The notes under the pieces: model-generated | Databases searched by the model: none | Seen by the model: only the letters and a program-made list of their open reading frames with translations | Told to the model about the DNA's origin: nothing | Shown: piece by piece, positions 2,427 through 63,506 of the stretch | Layout of the letters: the number at the start of each line of letters is the position of its first letter | How positions within the stretch are numbered: position 1 is the first letter of the stretch | DNA from: Pontiella sp. | Lineage (GTDB): Bacteria > Verrucomicrobiota > Kiritimatiellia > Kiritimatiellales > Pontiellaceae | Assembly (NCBI GenBank): GCA_050290185.1 | Contig: JBNKHE010000005.1 | Location: 160,001-224,000, forward strand | Direction of reading: 5' to 3' | DNA: 64,000 bases | Position numbers and translations under genes: made by a program

Positions 2427-2452
2427 CAAAAAAAAGTGCGGCGAACCGCACC
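2427..2452 (-). terminator. Intrinsic terminator-like hairpin between the radical SAM fusion gene and fhs
   Basis: Minus strand GTGCGG-TTCG-CCGCAC followed by a T-run. Confidence 0.55.
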
Positions 2453-2724
2453 TTGTACTTGCCCCGGGGAGGCTTTAATTTCGATTTAGTAGTTGATGAT
2501 TGCCGGCGCGAGACTCGCGGAATGGAGGCTGCCGCGCAATCCGTCCACAACACTGAATCGACTGATTTCAACTAGGTGGCCCAGATGGGGCCGAGTTCGG
2601 GGAATCGGCAGGGAATAGCGTTAGTCGTGGATACGTAGAGGGAGAAAAGATCGATTCAGCTTTTCATGCGTCCTCATTTGTAAGGATCGTAGAAATCGGC
2701 AAAAAACCGAAAAGAATTAATTCA

Positions 2725-4548
2725 TCAAAAGGAGTTCTGCTTATGTTCAAGGATCCGTTCCTGCCGATCGCGCAGTATTTCCTTGTTGGTCCAGACGCCG
2801 TAGGGATCGCAATAGGGCAGGCCGCGCGTGGTTTCGCGGATCGTTTTCAGTTCATCATCGGGTAGGGGAATTTCGATGTCTTCCGCCCGCATAGCTGCAA
2901 TTGTTCCGCCACGTTGCCGGCCAACCGGCGTGGTTTCTCCCACGAAAAAGCCGGCTTCCAGCAATCCCGCCCGCACCGGGATTGCGGCGCAATAGGTCAG
3001 CAACACGGCATCGGGTTTCATCACGCATTTTAGTTTGCGGAAAAAATCCACGGTCCAAAGTTCACTGTTGCGCTGGGTGGAAAAGGCGTCGAGGAAGACG
3101 AGGTCGAAATTGGACGTGGCTAGTTTGGTGATGGTGTGGCGCGCATCGCCCCAGTGAAGCATTGCCGATTGCCGATTGCTGATTTCCGATTGGCCATACA
3201 GATAAAGTTCTTCAAGAAACCGTTTCCAGTCGAAGGTGTCGGTTTTCAGCGTTTGGATGTTTTTAGCAGCGGCTCCCACCACGCGCCGATCCATTTCGAG
3301 AGCGGTGATTGATAGTCCTGGAGGGACGACGTCCTCGTCGTCCGCGGACAGCGGGGACGTTGTCGCTCCGGTTTTTCTCCCTCCAACCGCAAGGTTCATC
3401 GCGCAAAGGCTGTTGTAGCCCAATCCGAAACAGACATCCAGCAACTGGACATCGCCTTGCGCCAACCGCTCCTTGAGCTGGCTCGGCACGATATATTTTT
3501 CCTCTGCCTCCATTCGCGCGCCGGCCGGCGTGTGGTAGTGCTCCTTGTACTCCTCGTTCCAGAAGGTCACAGAGCCATCTTCGGTTTCGACGGATTTGAG
3601 CGATGTGCAAGGCCGGCAAGATGCCGGCGATACGTTCCGCAGGCTTCCAGCCTGTAAATCCCCTTGCCGCCATTCCCTGCAGATCATCTGCTGGATGACA
3701 TAGTCCTTGAACTGTCCCTTGGCCATGTGCCATTTCGGGGCGATGAGTTCTTCGTCGAGGGTGTCGGTCGTGAGCCGCATGATCGGAATGTGAGGCGGCA
3801 TCCGGCGGATGAAATCTATCAGGTGTTCGGCGAAATCGTATTCCATCAGAACAGGCAGGGGCGATAGCGCATGTTCCAGCGCCAACGTGGTTCCTTTTTC
3901 AATATGGAGATTGTGAATCTTGACCGCGTCGATCGGTAGCGCGGCCAACGTGACGGCCGTTTTTTGGAAATCCTCCGCAGTTTCCCCCGGCAGACCGAGG
4001 ATGGCGTGGACGGCGACTTTGATTCCTAGTTCATGTAGTTTCTGGATCGCTAGTTCGCTCGAAGCCCAATCGTGGCCGCGATTGACGCGTTCCAAGGTTT
4101 TGTCGTGTACGGTCTGGACGCCCAGCTCGACCCACACCTCGATATGCTTGTTGAGCTCGACGAGAAAATCGTATGCCTGCGGCGTAAGGCAATCGGGGCG
4201 CGTGCCGATGCTCACGGCAGTGAAGTCGAACGCATCGAGCAGGTCGAGATACATGGGTTGCTGGCTCTCGCCGAACGTGGCTGAAAACGCCTGGATGTAG
4301 GCCATGAATTTTTTCGCGCCGTAGCGCTCGCGCGCAAAGCGAATCGCTTCGGCCATTTGTTCCTCAACGGTGTTCTTTCCGATGGTTTGCACCGCCGCCG
4401 ACCCGCGTACATTGCAGAAGGTGCAACCGCCGGAACCATCGAGTTCCCGGTTGGGACAGCCTAGGTTGAAATCGATTGGAACGCGAAAGAGCGGCTCGCC
4501 GTAACGCTCTCGCATGAATTCTTTGTATTGGAGGTAAGGGGATTGCAT
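2725..4548 (-). CDS. Fusion of a TIGR01212 (YhcC/YtqA-MnmL-like) radical SAM domain and an MnmC-type tRNA (mnm5s2U34) methyltransferase domain
   Basis: N-half CPNR.....GGCTFC, IGTRPD, ELGVQT, NRGH, VKIHNL; C-half HYHT..GA..EA, DVCFGLGYN, VFLDAFS...N.ELWT, LTYCAA..VR..L..AGF. Start placed at MQSPY (4548). Confidence 0.88.
   Translation of the reverse strand: MQSPYLQYKEFMRERYGEPLFRVPIDFNLGCPNRELDGSGGCTFCNVRGSAAVQTIGKNTVEEQMAEAIRFARERYGAKKFMAYIQAFSATFGESQQPMYLDLLDAFDFTAVSIGTRPDCLTPQAYDFLVELNKHIEVWVELGVQTVHDKTLERVNRGHDWASSELAIQKLHELGIKVAVHAILGLPGETAEDFQKTAVTLAALPIDAVKIHNLHIEKGTTLALEHALSPLPVLMEYDFAEHLIDFIRRMPPHIPIMRLTTDTLDEELIAPKWHMAKGQFKDYVIQQMICREWRQGDLQAGSLRNVSPASCRPCTSLKSVETEDGSVTFWNEEYKEHYHTPAGARMEAEEKYIVPSQLKERLAQGDVQLLDVCFGLGYNSLCAMNLAVGGRKTGATTSPLSADDEDVVPPGLSITALEMDRRVVGAAAKNIQTLKTDTFDWKRFLEELYLYGQSEISNRQSAMLHWGDARHTITKLATSNFDLVFLDAFSTQRNSELWTVDFFRKLKCVMKPDAVLLTYCAAIPVRAGLLEAGFFVGETTPVGRQRGGTIAAMRAEDIEIPLPDDELKTIRETTRGLPYCDPYGVWTNKEILRDRQERILEHKQNSF
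3161..3195. repeat. Degenerate heptamer tandem repeat (ATTGCCG-like x5), in frame within the fusion gene
   Basis: attgccg attgccg attgctg atttccg attggcc; encodes GQSEISNRQSAM. Confidence 0.65.
3320..3369. repeat. Inverted pair of REP-like palindromes, in frame within the fusion gene
   Basis: GGAG-GGACGACG-TCCT-CGTCGTCC (perfect 8-bp stem) followed by an inverted copy reading GGAG-CGACAACG-TCCC-CGCTGTCC on the minus strand. Confidence 0.7.
3612..3654. repeat. Two back-to-back GTAG-type REP-like palindromes at the fusion linker
   Basis: GCCGGCA-AGA-TGCCGGC-GATAC abutting GTTCCG-CAGGCT-TCC-AGCCTG; encodes QAGSLRNVSPASCRP. Confidence 0.7.
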
Positions 4549-4579
4549 GGCGGGAATGTGCCGTAGTCCGTCGCACCGA

Positions 4580-6601
4580 TCAATTCCCAATAACCGCCGA
4601 AAAGCAAATCCGGCCATCGTCGGTTTCACGGGCCGTGACGCTGAGTTCTAGGTTTGGACTAAGCTGTCGGGCCCACCCCTCATCGCGGGCCGTCCATCGT
4701 CCGTTTTCCAGTTGACCCGGACGGGCCGTCCACGATTTCCCAAACTCCCGCTGGTTCGTCATGGACAGTCTCCAATGCGCCCTGGGATCATCGGCAGAAA
4801 AACCAGTGGTTGGCCCTGATGTTGCCTCCTCGAAGACCCTGAACACGCACGTGCGAAGCGAATTTCCGGAATCAGCTTCGCGGTCGTCTCCCCCATACTC
4901 GTAAAAGCCGAAGGACTCGTTGAGAGCGACTGTGCACGTGATATTGGTGGATTGAAGGGCGATGGGAATCAAGCCGATCGACTGCAGCACCGAGTCCGTG
5001 AGTGGTAGATCTTCCAACTTGTCTACACCCAGATCCTTCCCGAGTTTGTTCAAATTCTGCTGATTATCGTTTGGGTTCTGCAACAGGCGGTCCATGGCCA
5101 CGGCCCGGGCCAGCATATCAATGGCCCGCACTTGGTCATCTCTGCTTTTCCAGATCCGTGCCATTTCCATACAGGCTCTGACCGAGCATGGCTTGGCCTC
5201 GATCAAGTGGTTTTCGTATCGTTTTCGGAAGTCGTCGGTGTTTGGCCGGTTAAGGTATTGTTGCGAAAACGCCAACAGCAGTTCGACCGCTGTGGATTTA
5301 GTATTCAGCAGCGACTCGGCGGCCTGCAGAATTTCATCCTCGTTGAATGGCCGGAAATAGCAGGCCGTCATGACATCCGATTCCTTCCGTTCATACATGC
5401 CGGTGCTGGGTGGCTTGGTCTGGCGTATTAGCAGCAGATGTTCTCCATCATGGTTGAGTTCCAACGGGGTGGGGTAGCTGGAATCGAGATAGTCGTCGCT
5501 CCCGTTCCAACCTTCTTTTTCAAGGGCATTTTGAACGGCCTGCATGGCTTCATGCATGGGGCGCTCGTCGCGGTAGCTCCAGATCGTCATGTTATGGAAC
5601 AGGAAGCCGCATCCGCTTAGCTTGCTGATCACTTCCCGGTTCGCCTCAAAGGGCATCGTCGGCGCCGGTGAATAATTACCGTAGAATGCGTCGGGCATGC
5701 GTGGAAGAAGGCCGTTTTCATCGGCGGTTTGCGTGAGTGGTTTCAAGAGCTGATCACAGATGCTTTTACCGATGGCCTTGGCTTCGTCATCATGCACGGC
5801 CGATCCGGATTCGATGCCGGAGATCACACCTTTGTAGTTCACCGTGATGTTCTGGCTCAAGTCGACGAGCGGAATGTGGAAATTGTACGGAAAGTCCAGA
5901 TGATCGACCCCGCCGAATGCATTGCCGGAACAGGTGATGACGGCTTCCACGGCCCGGCCCGCCGGTCGTATGGATTGAGCATATGAAGGCATGTCGAGCC
6001 GCAGGTAATAGGAGGGAAGCAGGGCGCCGGGTTCGGGCGCAGAGCCCGCTGGATAGTACACCACTTCATCCACCATGGGCAGTCCGATCAGGGCCTGCTG
6101 GAGGAGATGCGCCGTTTTGATCATGAGGGGGTGGTCGCTGTCGTTCAGAATCGCGATGCGGCGGATATCCAACAATGCATTGGCCGGCACCGCCTTGCTG
6201 CTGGTTGCCGACGTATTGATCTGCGATTCACACGTGGTGGTCTTGAAGCCGGTCGGGCTTTGCTGCACAGGATCGCCTTTTCTGGCGGTAACGATATGGT
6301 CCGATGGTTTGGTTAGATGCAGTTCAAGAAACGTCACGATGACGGCGGACATGCCGAATACGATAATGCGGGAGCGAATCAGGTGTTTAGGTTTGTGTCC
6401 GGTCGGGCGAAGGAATACCCCAAACACGACATAGAGCAGTGTCATGAGCGGGTTGAACAGCAGGAAGGTCAGCCCCCACCACACCTTGGTCCCAAAATGG
6501 TTGTTCAGCACGGGGTAGAACGCCTTGCAACGGACCCAGTGAACAAGCAGGGCTATCCAGATCAGCAGGTAGGCTCCTCCGAGAAGTTTAATGAATGACA
6601 T
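4580..6601 (-). CDS. Hypothetical membrane-anchored protein (paralog of the upstream gene)
   Basis: Long ORF with about 3 N-terminal hydrophobic segments; shares RRIAILN.S..PL..KTA..LQQ.L...P.VDEV.YYPAG with 6641-8635. Confidence 0.75.
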   Translation of the reverse strand: MSFIKLLGGAYLLIWIALLVHWVRCKAFYPVLNNHFGTKVWWGLTFLLFNPLMTLLYVVFGVFLRPTGHKPKHLIRSRIIVFGMSAVIVTFLELHLTKPSDHIVTARKGDPVQQSPTGFKTTTCESQINTSATSSKAVPANALLDIRRIAILNDSDHPLMIKTAHLLQQALIGLPMVDEVVYYPAGSAPEPGALLPSYYLRLDMPSYAQSIRPAGRAVEAVITCSGNAFGGVDHLDFPYNFHIPLVDLSQNITVNYKGVISGIESGSAVHDDEAKAIGKSICDQLLKPLTQTADENGLLPRMPDAFYGNYSPAPTMPFEANREVISKLSGCGFLFHNMTIWSYRDERPMHEAMQAVQNALEKEGWNGSDDYLDSSYPTPLELNHDGEHLLLIRQTKPPSTGMYERKESDVMTACYFRPFNEDEILQAAESLLNTKSTAVELLLAFSQQYLNRPNTDDFRKRYENHLIEAKPCSVRACMEMARIWKSRDDQVRAIDMLARAVAMDRLLQNPNDNQQNLNKLGKDLGVDKLEDLPLTDSVLQSIGLIPIALQSTNITCTVALNESFGFYEYGGDDREADSGNSLRTCVFRVFEEATSGPTTGFSADDPRAHWRLSMTNQREFGKSWTARPGQLENGRWTARDEGWARQLSPNLELSVTARETDDGRICFSAVIGN

Positions 6602-6640
6602 GAGACTTTTCCTGTTTTGCGAACAGATCGCTGGATGCAC

Positions 6641-8635
6641 TTACAATTTCAACAGGTCGGGGATCGTCGGGACCTGTCTTTTCAAGGGAGTTACCGTAAA
6701 CTCAAATTTCTCGGTGCCGACCTGGGTTACCTCAACCTGGATGCGATCCAGTGGTTCGGGCACTTGTTCGCTGATGGCAGCATGCCATAGCCCCTTACTC
6801 GTTTGGCCTTCGGTAAAAGACCAGGAATGCATACCGATGGAATTATTTCCGTTGTATACCAGCGCCCAGTAATTATTCGGTAATGTTTTCCACCCCAGGA
6901 CCGGTGTAATTTTGAAGGGATCCTGAACAATTTTAAAAACATAGGTGCGTAGGCTGGCTCCCTTATCGACTCGATCATCGACATGATCTTGAAACAGATA
7001 GAAGCCCACGGGTTCTTCCGCCGAGACGGTCAGTGTCAGGTTAGTGGTTATCCTGGCCAGCGGGATCAAACCGTATTGCTGGATCATTTTTTCTGTCGGC
7101 AGCGCGTCGGCAAGTTCGGGGACGCCCAGATCCTCGGCCAACCTCCTCAGTTCGATGCGGGAACTTCCATCCTGTCTCAGGCTGAGGCCGCCGACGGCAG
7201 AGGTCAGTTCCTCGCTCGCTTTGTCTTTTTCCCCCTGGCTTGCCCAGAAACGGGCCAGTTCGAGGTGACCCTGCATGGATTTCGGCTCCTCCGACGCTAT
7301 CCGTTCCCTGAACTGTCCCATGATATCAGTCGATTGCGTTTCCCTGAACTGTCGCCCAAAGAACAACAGGGTGTACAACGGGTAGTCTGCATTCAGCAAC
7401 CCGGCGAGAACTGCATCCGTCTCTTCTGCCGAAAAGGGATTGCGGTAACGGGCGATCATGGGGAGGTAGGAGCCTTTTTTAAGCGGGTTGTCGGATCGAT
7501 AAACCCGCAGTTCCTCCTGCCCGCGGTGCATGCGAAGAAAGGTATCCCTGTCGGAATCGTCCACCCATCCGTCCTCCTCAAGCGCTTTCCGATAGAGGGC
7601 CAGGGCATCATCCGTTGATCGCACCTCCTCGACCCACCAGGTGGTGTGGTTGTGTGTGAGCAGGTCGGTACCGCTGATCATTTCCCGGATGGTGTCGTCG
7701 TCAAACGGCATGGGCGGAGTAGGCGTGCAGGTGCCTAGGGCGTTGTCCGGGACCGGTGGCTGGGGGAGACTGGCATACCAGGTTGTGCCAATCATCGATT
7801 TGAGATGGACGAACAAGGTTTTCACGATGTCCTCGGCCGCCGTCGAATATTTGGCCGCATATGATTCGTAGCCGAGCGTGGTGGATTCATGGTTGATGCT
7901 GATGGCCGTATCTTGTTTTCCCATAGGAAGAGGTAGCCAGGGGGCAGCAAGAGCTTGCGCAGCCTTGATCTTGAAATCCACCTTGGCACTGGTCATGTGC
8001 ATCATCGGAAGCACCGGGGCGCTGACACGCTCAACGTCCATGATAATGTAGATTCCGGGAAGGCGCGCGCCATCACGGGGGCTAGTTCCGGCGGGATAGT
8101 ACGATACCTCATCGACGGCAGGGGACTTCAATAGATACTGCTGAAGAATCTGAGCGGTTTTGACCGCGAGCGGATCCCTGCTTTTATTGAGGATCGCGAT
8201 ACGGCGCGCATCCAGAAAGGTAATGTTTTCAAAGCCGAATCCGCCGCTTACGGTGGTCGCATTGGAGGAGATCCGTATCGTTGCCTTGGATGACAGGTCG
8301 TATGCCTTGCGGGGGGTATCACTGACGACGATGCGGGGTTTGTCGGGAAGCCTGCCGATAGGCAGGGCCAGCAGAAGCGAAAGCCCAAAAAAAGGAAACA
8401 CGATTACCCGGGAACGTTTAAGATGCCGTGGTGGAGTTTCGCTCGGGCGCATTTTAACGCCATAGATAAAATAGAGCAGGGCCATTGCTGGATTCAGTGT
8501 CAGCAAGCCCACGCCCCAGAAGATCTTGGTGCGCCAACCCTTCCCCGCAATCGGATAAAACTCGGTTTTACCCATCCAGTGAATCAAAAGCCCAAGCCAC
8601 ACGAGAGCCGGGATTACGCCCATCACCAAGCCCAT
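6641..8635 (-). CDS. Hypothetical membrane-anchored protein (paralog of the downstream gene)
   Basis: Same architecture as 4580-6601; G-rich RBS upstream of MGLVMG. Confidence 0.75.
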   Translation of the reverse strand: MGLVMGVIPALVWLGLLIHWMGKTEFYPIAGKGWRTKIFWGVGLLTLNPAMALLYFIYGVKMRPSETPPRHLKRSRVIVFPFFGLSLLLALPIGRLPDKPRIVVSDTPRKAYDLSSKATIRISSNATTVSGGFGFENITFLDARRIAILNKSRDPLAVKTAQILQQYLLKSPAVDEVSYYPAGTSPRDGARLPGIYIIMDVERVSAPVLPMMHMTSAKVDFKIKAAQALAAPWLPLPMGKQDTAISINHESTTLGYESYAAKYSTAAEDIVKTLFVHLKSMIGTTWYASLPQPPVPDNALGTCTPTPPMPFDDDTIREMISGTDLLTHNHTTWWVEEVRSTDDALALYRKALEEDGWVDDSDRDTFLRMHRGQEELRVYRSDNPLKKGSYLPMIARYRNPFSAEETDAVLAGLLNADYPLYTLLFFGRQFRETQSTDIMGQFRERIASEEPKSMQGHLELARFWASQGEKDKASEELTSAVGGLSLRQDGSSRIELRRLAEDLGVPELADALPTEKMIQQYGLIPLARITTNLTLTVSAEEPVGFYLFQDHVDDRVDKGASLRTYVFKIVQDPFKITPVLGWKTLPNNYWALVYNGNNSIGMHSWSFTEGQTSKGLWHAAISEQVPEPLDRIQVEVTQVGTEKFEFTVTPLKRQVPTIPDLLKL

Positions 8636-8696
8636 AACACATCCCCCTTTCAATAAAGTTTAAAGGGTATGTTTAAATCAGCGAGGTGGCAAGCGG

Positions 8697-33611: not shown

Positions 33612-33661
33612 TTGCCAGCCCACTCTTGCCTTCCACGCAGGACTGCGTCTATCTTCCGCGC

Positions 33662-34744
33662 ATGTCCACTCCTGAAAAACCAATCAAAAAAGGTCGCGTA
33701 GCTGTCGGCATGAGCGGGGGAACCGACAGTTCTGCCGCCGCCGCGCTCCTCGTTGATCAAGGGTATGAAGTGATCGGCCTCACCGCCCACATGTGGAAAG
33801 ACGGATCACGATGTTGCTCGCTGGAGGACGTCGAAAGAGCCCGCAGGGTCTGCACTTATCTGGATATACGGCACTACGTGGTCAACGCGCAGGAAATCTT
33901 CACCGACAAAATCGTAAATCCTTTCGTCGACGCCTACGCATCCGGCCGTACTCCCTCACCCTGCATCTACTGCAATTCGTTCGTGAAGTTCGGTTTTCTA
34001 ATGGATCGCGCGCTGCAGCTCAATTGCGACCATCTGGCGACGGGACACTACGCCCATGTTGAGAAACAGGAAGACGGAAACTACCACTTGTTCTGTGCCA
34101 AGGACCCCACCAAGGATCAATCCTATTTCCTGCACAGGTTAAATCAGCAGCAACTGGGCTTCCTGTTATTCCCGCTGGCCGACATGCCGAAGACGGTGGT
34201 GAAGGCCTATTCGAAAGAGCGCGGCCTGCCCATCGTTCCTCGCGGGGACAGTCAGGACTTGTGTTTCGTGGAAGAGGGGCGGTTGCCGGAGTTTGTTGAG
34301 CAACGCGACCCTTCAGTCATCAAACGCGGCGAGATCCACGACCAGAACGGTAATGTGGTCGGTCATCACGATGGGCTGCATCGTTTCACGGTCGGCCAGC
34401 GCGGCAAGCTGGGCATCGCCTTGGGTGAGCGCATGTATGTGAAACGGCTCGACAGGGAAAACAATGTCGTGGAAGTTGCCCCCCGCCCAGGTGTCATGAA
34501 GTCGGAATGCATGCTCAGCGACATCCACTGGATTTCCGGGAAGCCCCCGGAAAATGATCTGCAGTGCGAAGTACGCCCCCGATATCGAAGCAACGGTGCC
34601 ATAGCATCGGTAAAACTGTCGACGGATAATACGGGACGTGCGGTCTTCGACAAACCCCAGTTTGCACTTACACCCGGTCAGGCCGCTGTCTTCTATCGGG
34701 ATGGAGAGGTGCTGGGTGGCGGATGGATCGATCAGGTTCTGTAG
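33662..34744 (+). CDS. mnmA: tRNA 2-thiouridine(34) synthase
   Basis: SGGTDS, TP.PC..CN, ATGHYA, KDQSYFL, DSQDLCF, FTVGQR, PGQAAV.Y. Confidence 0.95.
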   Translation: MSTPEKPIKKGRVAVGMSGGTDSSAAAALLVDQGYEVIGLTAHMWKDGSRCCSLEDVERARRVCTYLDIRHYVVNAQEIFTDKIVNPFVDAYASGRTPSPCIYCNSFVKFGFLMDRALQLNCDHLATGHYAHVEKQEDGNYHLFCAKDPTKDQSYFLHRLNQQQLGFLLFPLADMPKTVVKAYSKERGLPIVPRGDSQDLCFVEEGRLPEFVEQRDPSVIKRGEIHDQNGNVVGHHDGLHRFTVGQRGKLGIALGERMYVKRLDRENNVVEVAPRPGVMKSECMLSDIHWISGKPPENDLQCEVRPRYRSNGAIASVKLSTDNTGRAVFDKPQFALTPGQAAVFYRDGEVLGGGWIDQVL

Positions 34745-37232: not shown

Positions 37233-38063
37233 ATGTGGGAATATACGGATAAGGTTACGGATCACTTCAAGAATCCGCGTAATGTCGGGGCGGTCGAAAA
37301 CCCGGACGGTGAGGGAACTGTCGGCTCGCTGGCGTGCGGAGATGCCCTGCGACTTACCTTCAAGCTCGATGAAAACAAGCGTATCTGCGAGGCCCGGTTC
37401 CAGACCTTTGGTTGTGCCAGCGCGATTGCCTCCTCCTCCGCGTTGACGGAAATGGTTCTCGGCAAGACCATCGAGGAAGCCGAGAAGATTACCAATAACG
37501 ATATCGTCGAATATCTCGGCGCGTTGCCGAAGCAGAAGATTCATTGCTCGGTCATGGGCCGCGAAGCACTCGAAGCGGCGATCTACAACTACCGCACCGG
37601 AAAGACGCTCGACAAGAAGCTGGACGGCGAAGTGATCTGCCACTGCTTTGGCGCTACCGACAAGGAAATCGAAAAGCTGGCCCGCGAGCAAAACCTGACC
37701 ACGGCCGAAGATATAACCAACGCCTGCAAGGCCGGCGGCGGATGCGGCCAGTGCATCCCGGAGATCGAAACGATCATCAATCGCGTCATCGACGAGGGAC
37801 AGGCCAAAACGGAAATAAAGCCGAAACTGACCCAGCTGCAGAAAATCAAGCTGATCGAGGAAACCATCGACCGCCAGGTCCGCCCGATCCTGCGGCGCGA
37901 CAATGGCGACCTCGAGTTGCACGACGTCGACGGCGACAAGGTCTTCGTTAAGTTTGTCGGCGCCTGCGTGAGTTGTCCCGTCTCGACCGTCACCCTCAAG
38001 GATGTTGTCGAAACCCAGCTCCGCGAAGCCATCTCCGACGACATCGTCGTGGAGGCCGTCTAG
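37233..38063 (+). CDS. nifU: Three-domain Fe-S scaffold NifU
   Basis: IscU domain (CGD, FGC, HCS), BFD-like C.CF...AGGGC..C, Nfu domain GAC..C. Confidence 0.93.
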   Translation: MWEYTDKVTDHFKNPRNVGAVENPDGEGTVGSLACGDALRLTFKLDENKRICEARFQTFGCASAIASSSALTEMVLGKTIEEAEKITNNDIVEYLGALPKQKIHCSVMGREALEAAIYNYRTGKTLDKKLDGEVICHCFGATDKEIEKLAREQNLTTAEDITNACKAGGGCGQCIPEIETIINRVIDEGQAKTEIKPKLTQLQKIKLIEETIDRQVRPILRRDNGDLELHDVDGDKVFVKFVGACVSCPVSTVTLKDVVETQLREAISDDIVVEAV

Positions 38064-38159: not shown

Positions 38160-39326
38160 ATGAACAAGTCAGTGTATGTCGACAACAACGCCACGACTGC
38201 GGTAGCGCCCGAAGTCACGGAAGCCATGTTGCCTTTCTTTCACGAGCATTGGGGTAATCCTTCGAGTATGCACGCCTTCGGCGGAAACGTTAAGAAGCAC
38301 ATTGATACTGCCCGCGAAAAGGTGGCGGCACTCATCGGAGCGGAACATCCGAGCGAAATTATTTTCACGAGTTGCGGCTCCGAAAGCGACAACATGGCCA
38401 TCCGGGGAACGGTCGATGCCATGGGAGGCCATCCGCACATCATTACGACGCGCGTCGAGCATGCGGCGGTACTTGGACCGTGCCATCATCTCGAAGACCG
38501 CGGCTACCGTGTGACCACCCTCGATGTGGACGCCATGGGCAACCTCGATCTCGACCAGGTTCGCGATGCCTCTGCGAGCGGCAAGAAAACCGTCGCTTCC
38601 ATCATGTGGGCCAACAACGAAACCGGCGTAATTTTCCCGATTCCAGAACTTGCAGCACTTGTCAAGGAGGGCGGGGGTATCGTCCATACCGACGCCGTCC
38701 AGATTGCCGGCAAACTGCCTTTCGCGGTGAAGGATCTTCCCATCGACCTTTTATCCATATCCGGCCACAAGCTGCATGCGCCCAAGGGAATCGGAATGCT
38801 ATACGTCCGGCGTGGCACCAAAATCACGCCACACATCATGGGCGGACACCAGGAGCGTGGACGTCGTGCCGGAACGGAAAACGTGCCGTATATTGTCGGC
38901 CTCGGAAAAGCCTGTGAACTGGCCATGGAACGCATGGATCAGGACGCAGAACACGAACGCAAACTGCGCGACCGACTTGAACTGGGCATTCTCGAAACCT
39001 GCAAGGGCGCGCGCATAAACGGTGATGTCTCGCACCGCCTGCCCAACACCACTAACATCAGCTTTGAGTATGTAGAAGGAGAAGCCATCCTGCTCATGCT
39101 CGACGACGTCGGTATCTGCGCCTCCACCGGCTCGGCCTGCGCATCCGGCTCGCTGGAACCGTCGCATGTACTGCGCGCCATGGATGTACCGCGCTCGATG
39201 GTTCACGGATCCATCCGTTTCAGCCTCAGCCGATACAATACCGAGCAGGACGTCGACTATGTTCTGGAAAAGATGCCCGTCATCATCAACCGCCTCCGCG
39301 AACTTTCTCCGTTTGTGAAAGACTAG
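38160..39326 (+). CDS. nifS: Cysteine desulfurase (NifS type)
   Basis: DNNATT, GNPSS, ANNETG, SGHKLHAPKG, STGSAC, RFSLS. Confidence 0.94.
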   Translation: MNKSVYVDNNATTAVAPEVTEAMLPFFHEHWGNPSSMHAFGGNVKKHIDTAREKVAALIGAEHPSEIIFTSCGSESDNMAIRGTVDAMGGHPHIITTRVEHAAVLGPCHHLEDRGYRVTTLDVDAMGNLDLDQVRDASASGKKTVASIMWANNETGVIFPIPELAALVKEGGGIVHTDAVQIAGKLPFAVKDLPIDLLSISGHKLHAPKGIGMLYVRRGTKITPHIMGGHQERGRRAGTENVPYIVGLGKACELAMERMDQDAEHERKLRDRLELGILETCKGARINGDVSHRLPNTTNISFEYVEGEAILLMLDDVGICASTGSACASGSLEPSHVLRAMDVPRSMVHGSIRFSLSRYNTEQDVDYVLEKMPVIINRLRELSPFVKD

Positions 39327-58333: not shown

Positions 58334-58618
58334 CTATTTACCGGCCTTGCTGCTCAAGTTAATGGCCAGCGTGTTGATGATCCGTTTTACGAATGCCCAG
58401 GCGGGCGGATCGGTTGGCTTGACCTCGAAGAAATTGGCAATGATTGAGCTGGCGGCCACCAGCAACGGCAGCACAACGGTCAACGCCATATCCCACCCTG
58501 CCGACCCCGTCGTTCCATCAACCGGCGCAACATCCGTCTGGGCCATTCCGATTGCGGGAAACATCAATACGACGAGCATCGCCAGCATTATAATCATTTC
58601 AGACATGTTCATTTTCAT
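58334..58618 (-). CDS. Prophage holin-like membrane protein
   Basis: AAGGAG RBS, Met-Lys-Met start, two hydrophobic segments, 'AASSIIA...KP.D....RIINTLAIN..KA' tail resembling small phage holins. Confidence 0.55.
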   Translation of the reverse strand: MKMNMSEMIIMLAMLVVLMFPAIGMAQTDVAPVDGTTGSAGWDMALTVVLPLLVAASSIIANFFEVKPTDPPAWAFVKRIINTLAINLSSKAGK

Positions 58619-58634
58619 TTTGATCTCCTTTGGG

Positions 58635-58811
58635 TTAATGAAATGCGTGGATTGCGCGATCCTCGATATGGCGATCCAGTCGAGCATGGGCTTTGCTGAT
58701 AGAGTTGTCCTGGTGATCGAGTCGGTTGAGCAAAAGCTTTATGGCAATCCCCGAAATGATCGTTTGAGCACCAAGCAACATTGCAATCACAACCCCTAGC
58801 GTTCCGTCCAT
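58635..58811 (-). CDS. Prophage small membrane protein (58 aa)
   Basis: Hand translation MDGTLGVVIAMLLGAQTIISGIAIKLLLNRLDHQD...AFH*; TAATG coupling. Confidence 0.6.
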   Translation of the reverse strand: MDGTLGVVIAMLLGAQTIISGIAIKLLLNRLDHQDNSISKAHARLDRHIEDRAIHAFH

Positions 58812-59152
58812 TACGTCCCTACCTTCTTAAAAACTTGCGTGATCGGTTTCCGGTATGCAATGAGCGTCGTTAGGCCAAGGGCCACCAGCGTTGATATTGC
58901 TGCCTTGGCGATAGTTTTCCCGGTGGCCGTGGCAGCGGTGGCGATTTGATCTCTGTATCCCCCAACCGTTTCGGCCACGGCCCCAGGAAGTTGAGCAATC
59001 AGTGAATCGTTTTGAAGTCCCCCATGGAATGCCACAAGTTCAGCGGTGCGCTGTTTTGGCCTGGAATCGTTCCATGTTGTCGCATTCCACCCGCGGGAAA
59101 TCAGGAAGTGCTTATAGGCTGGATTCGAATCGAGGGCATCCCATAGCGTCAT
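58811..59152 (-). CDS. Prophage protein with a C-terminal TM anchor; N-terminal domain paralogous to 63829-63990
   Basis: ATGA coupling; TM followed by a basic tail. Confidence 0.7.
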   Translation of the reverse strand: MTLWDALDSNPAYKHFLISRGWNATTWNDSRPKQRTAELVAFHGGLQNDSLIAQLPGAVAETVGGYRDQIATAATATGKTIAKAAISTLVALGLTTLIAYRKPITQVFKKVGT

Positions 59153-59835
59153 GGCGTTGCTCCATACAGTTCGGATCTACGACGCCACTCGGGCGAAACC
59201 GTAAAGATCACAACGTTTCCGGCTGCATCGCGGTATGGTTCGTGCGTCTTGTCGTAAAGAACCATATGCCAAGTAATGTTACGGGAATACTCGTTGACCT
59301 TGGCAGCGGCCAGCGTTGAGCGTGTCAACCAGGTTTCCGCCGAAAGCGGATTTGCATTTGGCGTCTCCAGTGCGAGACTATTGGCCGACATCAGCGCGTT
59401 GCTATTTCCGGTTGCTGCTGTTCGGTAATACACTTGCGCTTGTGTATCGACCTGAACACCAGTCTCGAAATTCTGGACATATTCAGTTCCCACATTAAAA
59501 ACGAATGTGTAGTACCCGTCGCCGTCGTAGGAAACGGGGCTCGGGCTTGCAAGTTCCGATAGCCCTCCCGACCATCCATAGGAAATTACGGACGCCTGCA
59601 ATGTTCCGTTGTACGAGTATGGAGTCGTAGAAATCGACGTAACCGTTTCGCCCGGATTGCCCGTCACAGTGGTGCTCCAAATTCCTAGCAGGACATTATC
59701 AACATGAACATTTAACACCGTGTTACTTGGTACGGTGCTGCCAAAATTGACAACGAGTTTATACCGCAATAAAACGGCGTTAGACTCCGATGCAGCAAGC
59801 AACCCAATGAGAGATAATAGAAATATTTTTTTCAT
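59149..59835 (-). CDS. Prophage signal-peptide-bearing, beta-rich protein (spike/receptor-binding candidate)
   Basis: AGGAG RBS; MKKIFLLSLIGLLAASESNA leader; S/T/V/Y-rich. Confidence 0.65.
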   Translation of the reverse strand: MKKIFLLSLIGLLAASESNAVLLRYKLVVNFGSTVPSNTVLNVHVDNVLLGIWSTTVTGNPGETVTSISTTPYSYNGTLQASVISYGWSGGLSELASPSPVSYDGDGYYTFVFNVGTEYVQNFETGVQVDTQAQVYYRTAATGNSNALMSANSLALETPNANPLSAETWLTRSTLAAAKVNEYSRNITWHMVLYDKTHEPYRDAAGNVVIFTVSPEWRRRSELYGATP

Positions 59836-59846
59836 GCTTAAGACTC

Positions 59847-60395
59847 CTATTGTAGAACCGTCGACGACCAATTTTTTCCCTGCAAGCTTGGGTAGTTGTC
59901 CCATTCCGCGGTTGATATTGAACTTGCATAAAATACCGGCGTCCCTGGAGCCGACTGGTCGATCGCGAACAATTCAAAATCACAATACGGGAATGTATTT
60001 GTGTTGATTCCCGAGGTGACGTTCGTTGTCACCAGATCCATAGCGGCAAAGGTTGGCGACACATTGGTCGTAATGGTTGCGACTGGCGCGAACGTCGGTG
60101 TCATGTTGGTAACGCTCACAAGTCCATTGCTAACGGTCGTGAATGACACAACATTTGTCACCCAGCCAGATAGAGCCTGAACGGTGTTCGTTGAAACATT
60201 GGTCACGCTCCCCGAATACGCCTGAACGGTGTTCGTTGAAATATTGGTCGCGGCAGCGGTGAATTCCGGTTGCAACTGCACAGGAATCACAAACCTCGCA
60301 TACGGTTTATAGATTGGATTGTTTATTGAGCTTTGGCCGAATGCTGCCGAAGCGCACACGGCAAAAATCATTAGTGCTGCAAAAAGTGTCCGCAT
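59847..60395 (-). CDS. Prophage signal-peptide-bearing Thr/Asn-rich repeat protein
   Basis: MRTLFAALMIFAVCASAAFG-Q leader; TN[IV]STNTVQA repeats. Confidence 0.65.
   Translation of the reverse strand: MRTLFAALMIFAVCASAAFGQSSINNPIYKPYARFVIPVQLQPEFTAAATNISTNTVQAYSGSVTNVSTNTVQALSGWVTNVVSFTTVSNGLVSVTNMTPTFAPVATITTNVSPTFAAMDLVTTNVTSGINTNTFPYCDFELFAIDQSAPGTPVFYASSISTAEWDNYPSLQGKNWSSTVLQ
60175..60252. repeat. 45-bp period tandem duplication in the TN-rich gene
   Basis: GCCTGAACGGTGTTCGTTGAAA(C/T)ATTGGTC at 60175 and 60220. Confidence 0.85.
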
Positions 60396-60397
60396 AA

Positions 60398-61099
60398 TTA
60401 CCCCTTCATGATTTCATTGATCGAAAGTGTGCTGTCGGCATCTTGCGCCACGAAATAGATTACACCGTGACAACTGAGGGACACCGAACCGCTCGGGAAG
60501 ATCGGGGTTCCCCTGCCCGCAGCCGGATTGACAGAGGAATCGCCCCACCATATTGTATAGTCGCCCGTGTTCACAACCAGGCGTTCTTTGACCAGAGCAT
60601 TCGCGGCCAGGACTGAGGGGTTTGCCGGATCTGTTCCAACGGCAAGCGGAGCGGGTGTGCTGACTGAAGACCCCGACAAATCGACTTGCAGAAATCCTTC
60701 AATGACCGCCCGCGTGTCAGTGATCGGCCCCAGGGAAAGGACATATTCAATCGTCATAGATTCATCACTGGTATTATGAAACCGAACCTTGTTGAAGGTC
60801 GCCGGTTCGTAGGTCTTCTTATCGGGAGACAAACGGACAACCGGATAGCCGGTTCCGGCCTTGATGAAATTTGAAATTCCATTGTCCATGGAAATTAGCA
60901 CGTCAGTCGAAGCGGTGTTCGAAAAAATAGCGACGTATGATCCAAGGAATGGAACTTCCTTCTCTGACTGGGCTGAAACTGTAACTTTCCCGAATTTCTG
61001 ATTATTGGAAATCGGCATATCCGAGTAAGGAACCTTTTGACTCTGTGCGGCCATCACGGCGGCAACAATGGCCTGGATGTCTTCCGGGGTCAGATTCAT
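60398..61099 (-). CDS. Prophage structural protein, vertex/penton candidate
   Basis: Two beta-rich halves; 'AN...K...V.N.G...IW.GD..V....G.PI.P.G.V.L....IY' resembles small jelly-roll virion domains. Confidence 0.55.
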   Translation of the reverse strand: MNLTPEDIQAIVAAVMAAQSQKVPYSDMPISNNQKFGKVTVSAQSEKEVPFLGSYVAIFSNTASTDVLISMDNGISNFIKAGTGYPVVRLSPDKKTYEPATFNKVRFHNTSDESMTIEYVLSLGPITDTRAVIEGFLQVDLSGSSVSTPAPLAVGTDPANPSVLAANALVKERLVVNTGDYTIWWGDSSVNPAAGRGTPIFPSGSVSLSCHGVIYFVAQDADSTLSINEIMKG

Positions 61100-61707
61100 C
61101 TTTTCTTACGTCCTTTCACGACCATTCCAACCAGGATCAATCCCCCTAGCCCAAGGCCTAGATTTGCTTTGGTGAAAATTGTTTTTTGTTTGGCCCCTGG
61201 TGTCGTTGGCTTGGAAATTCCGCCCCCTGACACAGTAGACCCACTTAGGAATGCCGGAGCTGCCGACAACTGCCCCGGTGAAAAATTATCAAGCACCTTG
61301 TTCGTGTTTTCGTAGGTGAGCTGCAAAGCCTGGTCGATGATCTCTTGTGTACGTTCATCGAGCGCATGGTTCACGTAGCTCGACCCCTCGCCCACAGTGA
61401 CACCGTAATTGACGCTCGAACCGTCGCCGATGATTTGCCCCTGGTTATTATCCATTGAGGTTTGGTTCACGGTGTATTCAGACCCGACGCCTTGCTGAAT
61501 GCCATTGTTGACCGCAGACCTGTCGCCATATATGACGCCTTGGTTTCCATCGATCTGACTTGCATTATCGCCGAGAACGGTCGCCCCGATTCCGACATCA
61601 GTACGGACGTTAGATGCCCCCTCCCCCAGCACAACGGCGTTATCAGACGCCATCATATTATTGTTCGTCGTTTGCTGCCGGTTAGATTGTTTGGATCCGC
61701 CGCCCAT
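61096..61707 (-). CDS. Prophage MGGG-start membrane/DNA-delivery protein candidate
   Basis: MGGGSKQSN.QQTTNN start, internal V[LI]G[DE].[AS]S.V repeats, C-terminal TM + GRKKR. Confidence 0.65.
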   Translation of the reverse strand: MGGGSKQSNRQQTTNNNMMASDNAVVLGEGASNVRTDVGIGATVLGDNASQIDGNQGVIYGDRSAVNNGIQQGVGSEYTVNQTSMDNNQGQIIGDGSSVNYGVTVGEGSSYVNHALDERTQEIIDQALQLTYENTNKVLDNFSPGQLSAAPAFLSGSTVSGGGISKPTTPGAKQKTIFTKANLGLGLGGLILVGMVVKGRKKR

Positions 61708-62159
61708 TAGACAATCCTCTTGTAATAGGTTTCGACCTTAACGAACCCATGTTGCTCCAACCGGCGATCCATGCCTTGGCGCATACTTCTAACGCTCCAT
61801 GATTCGATTCGGCTTTTTTCGGCGAGTCCGTGTAGCAATGGATAAAGGGTGCAGATGAACGGAATTTCCTGTTGAACTACCGACACCGCGTGCAAAACGA
61901 GGAAATTGCAGGGTTTCCCATATTCACATTCAACCTGGCCGGTAACGATCCCGATCAGCTCGCCTTCCCGCTCAACTCGATAAAGCAGAATTCCCCCGCT
62001 TCGAATCTGATTTTCGATCCAGTCCAGACGATCAACCAACCCGACCCGGGCGGTCGTATTGTTTCTCTCCGATCTGGCAATCAGATTGCGAACGCCCGGA
62101 AACATATCCGAACGTTCGCACCGAACCACCGCTAGATCTATGACTTGTGAATCAGCCAT
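61707..62159 (-). CDS. Prophage GNAT-fold-like protein
   Basis: 150 aa; LY.V...GE.IG strand pattern and C-terminal 'S.R.GM.R.L...GF...ET.Y' like GNAT motif B. Confidence 0.55.
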   Translation of the reverse strand: MADSQVIDLAVVRCERSDMFPGVRNLIARSERNNTTARVGLVDRLDWIENQIRSGGILLYRVEREGELIGIVTGQVECEYGKPCNFLVLHAVSVVQQEIPFICTLYPLLHGLAEKSRIESWSVRSMRQGMDRRLEQHGFVKVETYYKRIV

Positions 62160-62332
62160 GCCGAAATTCCGCCAATTGCAGCCATTCCGAGCAGCCCGAA
62201 CGCGATGGATTTACCAACCCCTCCACCGATCAAGGTCTGGCGGGCACCAGCAATAGCACCGAAGTCATTGCTCGTTGGCCCGTTAGACCCGCCCGTAAAG
62301 GAGGGATTGACAGTTACACCGCCGCCGCCCAC
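62138..62332 (-). CDS. Prophage small Gly-rich membrane protein (MGGGG start)
   Basis: GTG overlapping the upstream TAG; C-terminal TM. Confidence 0.6.
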   Translation of the reverse strand: MGGGGVTVNPSFTGGSNGPTSNDFGAIAGARQTLIGGGVGKSIAFGLLGMAAIGGISAWLIHKS

Positions 62333-62616
62333 TACTTGCCATCCTTTGATTTCATCCAAAGGCCCATCCCCAGCAGAAGCGAAGTCCCGCCGCCAAACCA
62401 AACCCACTTAGAAATCTTTTTGGGTTTGGCCGGTTCGGCAGGTGCGTTCATTGGAGCGGCAGCAACGGGGGCGGTCGGACTTCCGACCTGTTGACCGTCC
62501 CCATTGAATCCGGTGGCATCGTAGATCCTGCTTGCGGCAGCGTCCGCCCCCGCCGTGACCAGTCGCTGACCAACGTTCGAGTTTAGACCGCTGTTTAATA
62601 GATCCCGAAGAGCCAT
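62332..62616 (-). CDS. Prophage membrane protein with a C-terminal anchor (position of PM2 P3)
   Basis: Directly follows the capsid gene; Pro/Ala linker, then KWVWFGGG.SLLLG.GLW.K. Confidence 0.65.
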   Translation of the reverse strand: MALRDLLNSGLNSNVGQRLVTAGADAAASRIYDATGFNGDGQQVGSPTAPVAAAPMNAPAEPAKPKKISKWVWFGGGTSLLLGMGLWMKSKDGK

Positions 62617-62618
62617 GG

Positions 62619-63506
62619 CTACGCCGCCTTTCGATCCTTGAAGATCTGTTCGTACCACAGGCGACCGTTCGAGGTTACGCCAGCACCGTCATCCGCGAAA
62701 TTCGGAGTGACCAGGAGCGACCCCAGGCCGGTTTCGAAGAAATACGCCGGAACGTCTTCCTTGTTGAAATCGACCGTCGCAAATCCAGCCTGCGGCGAAC
62801 GATAGCGGTACTCCAGCCATCTGTTGATGATGACCTGGGGAACATCCCGATAGGGATACTGCTTGGAGTTGATTGCGACTGTCCAATCGGCAACCGACAA
62901 GTGCGCGGGCTCCTCGAAGTGAAGGGCATTCAGGCACAGGTTCGGATTGTCGAACGGAATCGTCGAGATTTCAACCTGTCCGCCACCGGCAGGAACCGTC
63001 ACCGACTGACTGCCGATACGAACGTGGTCGCCCAGTTCCTGTTTCAGGTTGAAGTCCACGTCTGCCCAGATGTCGATCCGGGTGCATCCGGTCGTATCGG
63101 CAGAATATTGGAACTCCGCCGTCATGGCCTTAAGATCCGCGGTTCCGATCGTCAACTGGTTGCGACGGCCTTCGTCCTTGCCAACACCGGCAGCAGGATC
63201 AAAGTTGATCTGCGACGCACTTGCGGCCACGCCGATCGTTTCATAATGAAACGCATCGCGATAATTCAGGAACGAGGGAGTCACCTTATTGAGCAGCGCG
63301 AATCCGTCGCCGTTCTGGTGGTCGACACTCAGTGTCAAATTGGCGAGTGCATCAGCAAGCGCCGTGCCCGCACATAACGTGCCGCCATTCCACCCCTGGA
63401 AAATGAACTTCCCGAAAGTGCCCTGGTGCTTGATGTCGATTTCAATCGGTTCATTGCCGCCATCTGAGACATTCACCGATCCGATTTTGAGAGGATTCCG
63501 AATCAT
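62619..63506 (-). CDS. Double jelly-roll major capsid protein, PM2 P2-like
   Basis: 295 aa, beta-rich; LTIGTADL..M..EF, GQVEISTIP......ALHF and N..LE...R.PQAG...VDF..E resemble PM2 P2 segments as I recall them; TAATG coupling. Confidence 0.75.
   Translation of the reverse strand: MIRNPLKIGSVNVSDGGNEPIEIDIKHQGTFGKFIFQGWNGGTLCAGTALADALANLTLSVDHQNGDGFALLNKVTPSFLNYRDAFHYETIGVAASASQINFDPAAGVGKDEGRRNQLTIGTADLKAMTAEFQYSADTTGCTRIDIWADVDFNLKQELGDHVRIGSQSVTVPAGGGQVEISTIPFDNPNLCLNALHFEEPAHLSVADWTVAINSKQYPYRDVPQVIINRWLEYRYRSPQAGFATVDFNKEDVPAYFFETGLGSLLVTPNFADDGAGVTSNGRLWYEQIFKDRKAA

Follow-up and report, generated by a model that had tools for sequence, protein, structure and literature searches.

The fusion gene and its domains

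The window, the whole stretch of 64,000 nucleotides of Pontiella sp. DNA that was analysed, contains a gene that encodes a radical-SAM domain and a methyltransferase domain in one chain, P0001 (Table 1). The open frame of this gene continues upstream of the start at 4548 to a GTG at 4629. The consensus start in the alignment of homologues is MxxPY, as opposed to this GTG extension.

Table 1. Features of the fusion gene and of the window. Positions are those of the window.
Feature	Position	Strand	Remarks
mnmL-mnmC2 fusion gene	2725..4548	-	single stop-free ORF, 607 aa (P0001), N-terminus MQSPY
MnmL/YtqA radical-SAM domain, residues 5-296	3661..4536	-	Radical_SAM and Radical_SAM_C; TIGR01212
[4Fe-4S] motif C31-x10-C42-x2-C45	4414..4458	-	C31 = YhcC C33
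Inter-domain linker, residues 297-318	3595..3660	-	variable in length and sequence
MnmC2-type class I SAM methyltransferase domain, residues about 319-607	2728..3594	-	PF05430, NF033855, 3vyw
Methyltransferase motif I, D371-N379 (DVCFGLGYN)	3412..3438	-	aligns with Aquifex MnmC2 motif I
Motif IV, D487-A-F-S	3079..3090	-	D487 = Aquifex MnmC2 D193 (catalytic) = E. coli MnmC D178
REP-like double-hairpin repeat, family B	3607..3654	.	in frame, linker
REP-like hairpin repeat, family A	3319..3369	.	in frame, methyltransferase loop, residues about 394-410
Heptamer tandem repeat	3161..3193	.	in frame, second methyltransferase loop, residues about 452-463
mnmA	33626-34741		passes NCBIfam cut-off
nifU	37233-38060		passes NCBIfam cut-off
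nifS	38172-39323		passes NCBIfam cut-off

The N-terminal part of the protein scores 244.4 bits with TIGR01212 (currently named tRNA modification radical SAM protein MnmL/YtqA), whose cut-off is 180, over model positions 2-297 of 302. It is 35% identical to E. coli YhcC across 266 amino acids. The C-terminal part matches PF05430 (Methyltransf_30) with 88.8 bits at residues 443-553, where the gathering score is 22; Radical_SAM, Radical_SAM_C and Methyltransf_30 all exceed their Pfam gathering scores. The MnmC2 model NF033855 covers residues 331-549 (model positions 3-204 of 209) with 93.8 bits, which is below its equivalog-domain cut-off of 136, so that P0001 does not count as a strict NF033855 equivalog. 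Insertions in the loops may have lowered this score. The top match in the PDB is the Aquifex MnmC2 structure 3vyw (E 5e-25). E. coli MnmC aligns with the methyltransferase half only, at 31% identity over 103 amino acids.

The FAD oxidase MnmC1 is absent from P0001, NF002480/NF002481 giving 64.7 bits against 540 and no alignment to the oxidase being obtained, and a Pfam profile search found no match to MnmM (PF06962) in the protein or in its own genome. P0001 accordingly fits the class of YtqA/MnmC2 fusions, in which a radical-SAM domain of the YtqA subgroup and MnmC2 share a chain that has no MnmC1. The initial annotation had described one ORF with a radical SAM domain followed by the methyltransferase half of MnmC, lacking the FAD oxidase. 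The profile scan it had suggested confirmed this through TIGR01212, PF05430 and 3vyw, with NF033855 remaining below cut-off.

The cluster cysteines C31, C42 and C45 are invariant across a 42-sequence alignment (A1), and the motif was found in all of the 112 full-length close homologues, a set that excludes the query and seven shorter sequences. Motif I is kept in 111 and D[APG]FS is present in all 112. The methyltransferase motif set in P0001 comprises motif I (GX)GXGXN, the motif II glutamate E418 and the motif IV DXF residues D487/F489. Residues D468, A469, D487, F489, N494 and E496 align with Aquifex MnmC2 D174, A175, D193, F195, N200 and E202, which are reported as SAM contacts and the catalytic base (PMC3527978), and E418 likewise maps onto the Aquifex residues for SAM binding and catalysis. 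In the radical-SAM half, P0001 keeps the equivalents of YhcC C33, R118, D120, E143, K212, H214 and R260, as do 111-112 of 112 other fused rows. The alanine variant of YhcC C33 is reported to be inactive (bioRxiv 10.64898/2026.05.18.725915).

There are some departures from the known enzymes. The proline of DXFXP is replaced by threonine, T491 corresponding to P182 of E. coli MnmC and P197 of the Aquifex protein; P182 is reported to be more than 98% conserved among bifunctional MnmC proteins (PMC3648344). YhcC K21 is replaced by P19 and the neighbouring K24 by R22. YhcC R279 is replaced by K277, a lysine shared by 111 of 112 fused rows. The roles of K21, proposed to lie where the tRNA cleft opens, and of R279 are given as predictions in the YhcC preprint (bioRxiv 10.64898/2026.05.18.725915).

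The initial annotation also pointed to mnmA and a NifSU system in the window. These genes are present above their cut-offs, 29-35 kb from the fusion; their co-location is conserved in none of five well-assembled relatives, and we rejected it as supporting context on this ground. In three of these (G275, G269, G049) mnmA is 0.7-2.1 Mb away from the fusion, in two (G093, G308) it is on a different contig, and in none of the five does nifU lie within 0.5 Mb of the fusion on the same contig.

In flanks of about 2.5-3.5 kb around 73 fused loci, with some genomes represented twice, pyrC is the most frequent neighbour (17), followed by a gene like that at G000:C4:97455-98483 (16). A one-carbon link through an adjacent formate-THF ligase was considered and rejected, because this neighbour recurs in only two of the 73 loci. 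Between pyrC and the fusion in the window lie two tandem ORFs of about 670 amino acids (4580-8653, reverse strand), apparently paralogous and with hydrophobic N-termini, which have no Pfam or NCBIfam match. At two loci of the same genus pyrC directly abuts the fusion. A series of short ORFs at 58337-63476 on the reverse strand is possibly a mobile element; the five that were scanned have no NCBIfam match at E 1e-20.

Repeats in the loops and the origin of the fusion

Three variable loops of the fusion gene carry genomic repeats that are read in frame. The family B repeat has 16 hits in the genome (G000), 11 of them intergenic, including a copy of 98% identity at G000:C1:589977-590024; its fold z is -3.80. 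Family A has 26 hits, 20 intergenic and six in ORFs according to crude gene calling, and a fold z of -3.34. Both families fold better than their shuffles; this was not the case for two nearby intergenic stretches. The loops were compared among 28 close coding sequences including that of the window, each loop being counted where the search patterns captured it. Of the linkers, 8 of 28 showed a periodicity of seven bases and 5 of 28 had at least three matching sites in G000. The corresponding counts were 3 of 22 and 5 of 22 for the first loops, 11 of 21 and 1 of 21 for the second loops, and 0 of 76 and 1 of 76 for the control stretches. In one low-depth contig from run X3, a different palindrome of 33 bases stands at the family A site in place of 84 bases, and the frame is kept. 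Several repeat families alternate among the relatives at the same three loops. The repeats are most likely tolerated passengers.

Other observations concern the rest of the genome. An ORF of 794 amino acids (L120:619-3003, G000:C2:301118-303502) encodes a B12-binding radical SAM protein (DUF4080) with an in-frame REP-associated tyrosine transposase domain at residues 545-645 (74.5 bits, cut-off 80). It contains four family B repeat hits and is a candidate mobiliser of family B. The genome also has six TIGR02436 four-helix-bundle genes and four Y1_Tnp matches. Family A hits occur within called ORFs (L115-L119) for a DusB-like dihydrouridine synthase, a GGDEF protein, an AddB-like nuclease, a VC0807-family protein and an ABC-F ATPase. 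MnmG (G000:C6:245565-247436) gives its profile match in two pieces around model position 228-232, as in most genomes of the class, which suggests a hot spot of variable insertion in another U34 enzyme.

The repeat in the linker bears on whether the fusion is genuine. Two separate genes might have been joined through the REP-like repeat, or by mis-assembly, a case that the initial annotation had named as its own refutation. The linker does hold a genomic repeat, and seven genomes of the class have the two genes apart. The check failed to support such an artefact. In the genus of the window a match is found in 43 of 44 genomes, and the junction is crossed in one frame in 39; four have fragments and one has no match. 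Fusions in other phyla have linkers that are short and unrelated in sequence. Contigs assembled by Logan from three runs of one study (X1 2449-5000, X2 3345-4348, X3 3485-4401) span the domain junction with zero differences; X1 is possibly the source sample. We therefore reject a fusion made by the repeat or by the assembly, to which we give practically no chance. The loop repeats do not create the fusion.

The fusion is found well beyond the genus. The best 120 of 434 homologue matches to residues 200-607, the query among them, all carry PF05430 and a radical-SAM Pfam domain, and those that are named belong mostly to Pontiella, the Pontiellaceae and other Kiritimatiellae/Verrucomicrobiota. 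Among 80 of 545 confirmed loci from a GTDB scan there are full-length fusions in Lentisphaeria, Desulfobulbales and Margulisbacteria, and in at least one MAG each of a spirochaete, a gemmatimonad and a planctomycete. In 201 genomes of the phylum, MnmL is present in 60, and in 52 of these it lies in an ORF of at least 565 amino acids, counted by length alone.

A FastTree phylogeny of 199 radical-SAM domains places all 113 fused rows inside one clade of 130 rows (SH 100). Among the 17 unfused rows of this clade are the seven proteins of family f23, three proteins whose tails look like eroded methyltransferases, and two QueH fusions. This tree, from rows that were collected with the fusion's own profile, with a midpoint root and no AU test, is compatible with a fusion that arose once, passed between phyla and was later split or eroded. 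The methyltransferase tree has many long branches, and we draw no claim on the origin from it.

Some members of the MnmL family have other architectures. In P0155, P0169 and P0260, MnmL is fused to the epoxyqueuosine reductase QueH, which is N-terminal in P0155 and P0260 and C-terminal in P0169. P0260 falls outside the fusion clade, so the MnmL-QueH fusion arose more than once; our literature search found no paper on a QueH-YtqA fusion. Four MnmL proteins of the fusion clade (P0150, P0172, P0179, P0161) have C-terminal tails that resemble an eroded MnmC2, and the DxF motif is unrecognisable in P0150 and P0172. In the seven genomes of family f23 (L020-L034) an unfused MnmL is nested in the fusion clade and MnmC2 is unlinked, a possible fission. 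Other long MnmL proteins are P0268, with a rhomboid domain, P0271, with a HAD hydrolase, and P0239 and P0256, with unassigned N-terminal extensions.

Gene set and proposed function

The genome of the window is 95.5% complete, and P0001 is its sole TIGR01212 match above cut-off and its sole PF05430 match. The genes mnmA, mnmE and mnmG are over cut-off, and the tRNAs Lys-UUU, Glu-UUC and Gln-UUG are encoded. MnmC1 was not found in this genome, the best score being 39.7 bits against 174.2. Two further observations are that ARAGORN reports ten tRNA genes with anticodon CAT and that a contig of 544 bases (G000:C115:1-544) holds a second, partial MnmE match of 146 bits, perhaps from a strain variant or contamination.

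Among 121 genomes of the class, which are kin so that their counts are not independent, MnmL is present in 27 and MnmC2 in 27. Both occur in 26 (19 fused, seven separate), and one genome each has a single domain. The domains therefore co-occur whether fused or not. The seven genomes with separate genes all belong to family f23, where the genes are unlinked and occur together in seven of the eight genomes that have either. MnmC1 is above cut-off in none of the 121 genomes (at most 13 candidates were scored per genome). MnmM is found in two, neither of which has MnmL. MnmG is present in 117 and 93 have neither MnmL nor MnmC2; since most of the class has MnmG yet neither domain, the step is dispensable.

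We propose, with a probability of about 0.85, that P0001 is a single-chain MnmL-MnmC2 enzyme that carries out the two final steps in the synthesis of mnm5(s2)U34. MnmEG, with MnmA, would produce cmnm5s2U34. The N-terminal [4Fe-4S] radical-SAM domain would convert SAM to the 5'-deoxyadenosyl radical, and the radical step would strip off the carboxymethyl group, so that nm5s2U34 forms independently of O2. With a second SAM, the class I methyltransferase at the C-terminus would then methylate the free amine to mnm5s2U34, with D487 as the base. Overall the protein would be a counterpart of E. coli MnmC in which MnmL takes the place of the O2-dependent flavin oxidase.

This mechanism is consistent with the domain content, the intact catalytic residues and the gene set of the genome. 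To the observed fusion, motifs and gene context it adds half-reactions that are known for homologues and are carried over to P0001 by analogy; we infer the activity of P0001, the site of hydrogen abstraction and the hand-off between the domains. Reconstituted E. coli YhcC is reported to convert cmnm5s2U-tRNA to nm5s2U-tRNA in vitro and to be required anaerobically, when MnmC1 is inactive (bioRxiv 10.64898/2026.05.18.725915). The Aquifex MnmC2, which stands alone without an oxidase, methylates nm5U (PMC3527978). Cultured Pontiella are described as anaerobes. The initial annotation had suggested a single chain in which radical SAM chemistry replaces the flavin oxidase, independently of O2, and the domains, residues, gene set, published work on YhcC and published prediction of the route from YtqA/MnmC2 fusions support this. 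Points against our proposal are the score below cut-off for NF033855, the replacements of P182 by T491 and of K21 by P19 and the dispensable nature of the step in the class.

A deletion of ytqA in B. subtilis is reported to accumulate nm5s2U and to lack mnm5s2U (bioRxiv 10.1101/2023.12.21.572861), and a simple role in the conversion of cmnm5 to nm5, as proposed here, fits poorly with this. The radical domain might instead turn cmnm5 directly into mnm5 by radical decarboxylation, or might need the methyltransferase domain in order to act, with the methyltransferase mainly handling nm5 made by MnmEG. An interplay between MnmL and the methylase was proposed in the same preprint, and at five columns, besides the K21 site, the residues of the fusion clade are unlike those of MnmL rows outside it. 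Such a division of labour is nevertheless improbable. Purified YhcC yields nm5s2U from cmnm5s2U, anaerobic mnm5s2U in E. coli needs MnmC2, and the ammonium route is reported to have no in vivo evidence in E. coli (bioRxiv 10.64898/2026.05.18.725915).

The stand-alone Aquifex MnmC2 functions without an oxidase (PMC3527978), and it could be that in P0001, too, the MnmC2 half alone works on U34. The radical-SAM half would then act on a different substrate, such as another position of the tRNA, or serve queuosine-related chemistry; some radical domains of the same clade are joined to QueH (P0155, P0169) or carry an eroded methyltransferase tail. Both subgroups with reported tests, YtqA of B. subtilis and S. 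mutans and YhcC of E. coli, serve the mnm5s2U pathway, and the unfused f23 genes are still paired in most of the genomes with either. We consider a different substrate very improbable.

The K21 site suggests a further elaboration. A basic residue (K/R) occupies this column in 57 of 69 rows outside the fusion clade and in 7 of the 130 rows inside it (5 of 113 fused, 2 of 17 unfused). From these sequences one might suppose, though we find it doubtful, that the clade is a coupled and mechanistically distinct MnmL that has lost the basic cleft residue. MnmC2 would bind and present the tRNA, and nm5s2U would be passed on without release, unlike in the independent domains of E. coli MnmC. If this were true, the four fusions with eroded tails would keep their domain as a tRNA-binding scaffold and the QueH fusions would be a scaffold swap. 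It is set against this that the seven unfused f23 proteins, whose MnmC2 gene is unlinked, also have no basic residue at the site, and that the role of K21 is a prediction (bioRxiv 10.64898/2026.05.18.725915).

For Pontiella-like bacteria and other, mostly anaerobic, lineages, a single-chain MnmL-MnmC2 enzyme completes the annotation of the pathway: one enzyme that needs no oxygen most likely makes their mnm5s2U34. In the literature the MnmL/MnmC2 route still has the status of a prediction, and the orthologue of a cultured Pontiella is therefore a convenient one-gene test. It is also a possible handle on the cooperation between MnmL and the methylase. The fusion itself opens no new question.

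Comparison with known systems

Earlier publications already cover this type of fusion, what MnmL does and the reasoning on oxygen. Jaroch et al. (bioRxiv 10.1101/2023.12.21.572861) report 73 YtqA/MnmC2 fusions, three from COG genomes and 70 from InterPro. These served to identify MnmL, and the MnmL/MnmC2 route is given there as predicted and awaiting validation. A later preprint (10.1101/2024.12.21.629855) repeats the pairing. The mechanism put forward in the initial annotation is therefore not a new inference. The main text of Jaroch et al., as far as it was available, does not name the Kiritimatiellae, and no experimental test of any MnmL-MnmC2 fusion was found in the literature covered, which mostly did not include subscription journals. 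P0001 shares with the published fusions the same families (COG1242/PF04055/PF16199 and MnmC2), the single chain and the predicted pathway. There is no difference at the level of the family; P0001 has three repeat-derived loops. The small additions made here are the fusion clade with its unfused family, the eroded-methyltransferase and QueH variants and the three repeat-filled loops.

In-frame short palindromic repeats in loops of conserved enzymes have already been described; the verrucomicrobium O. terrae and tRNA-modifying genes are among the reported cases (PMC3733652, PMC2229807). The repeats in P0001 resemble intragenic REPs and Rickettsia palindromic elements in being palindromic and read in frame in enzyme loops. 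The repeat sequences differ, and here several families alternate at three loops.

P0001 shares the TIGR01212 family, the cluster cysteines and most conserved residues with E. coli YhcC/MnmL and B. subtilis YtqA/MnmL. Those proteins stand alone and are partnered with MnmC or MnmM, and P0001 has the changes at K21 and R279. Compared with the MnmL-MnmM systems, P0001 has no PF06962 partner in the protein or in the genome.

The Aquifex aeolicus MnmC2/DUF752 (3vyw; PMC3527978) shares with P0001 motif I and the equivalents of D174/A175, D193-x-F195, N200 and E202. It is a stand-alone protein, whereas P0001 is fused, has threonine in place of P197 and contains two repeat-filled loops in this domain. 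The bifunctional MnmC of E. coli, comprising MnmC2 and the FAD oxidase MnmC1, also has one chain, a homologous methyltransferase and, on our reading of P0001, the same two net steps. P0001 differs from it in having no flavin oxidase and in the reversed order of the domains, with the methyltransferase at the C-terminus, and its first step would be radical rather than O2-dependent.
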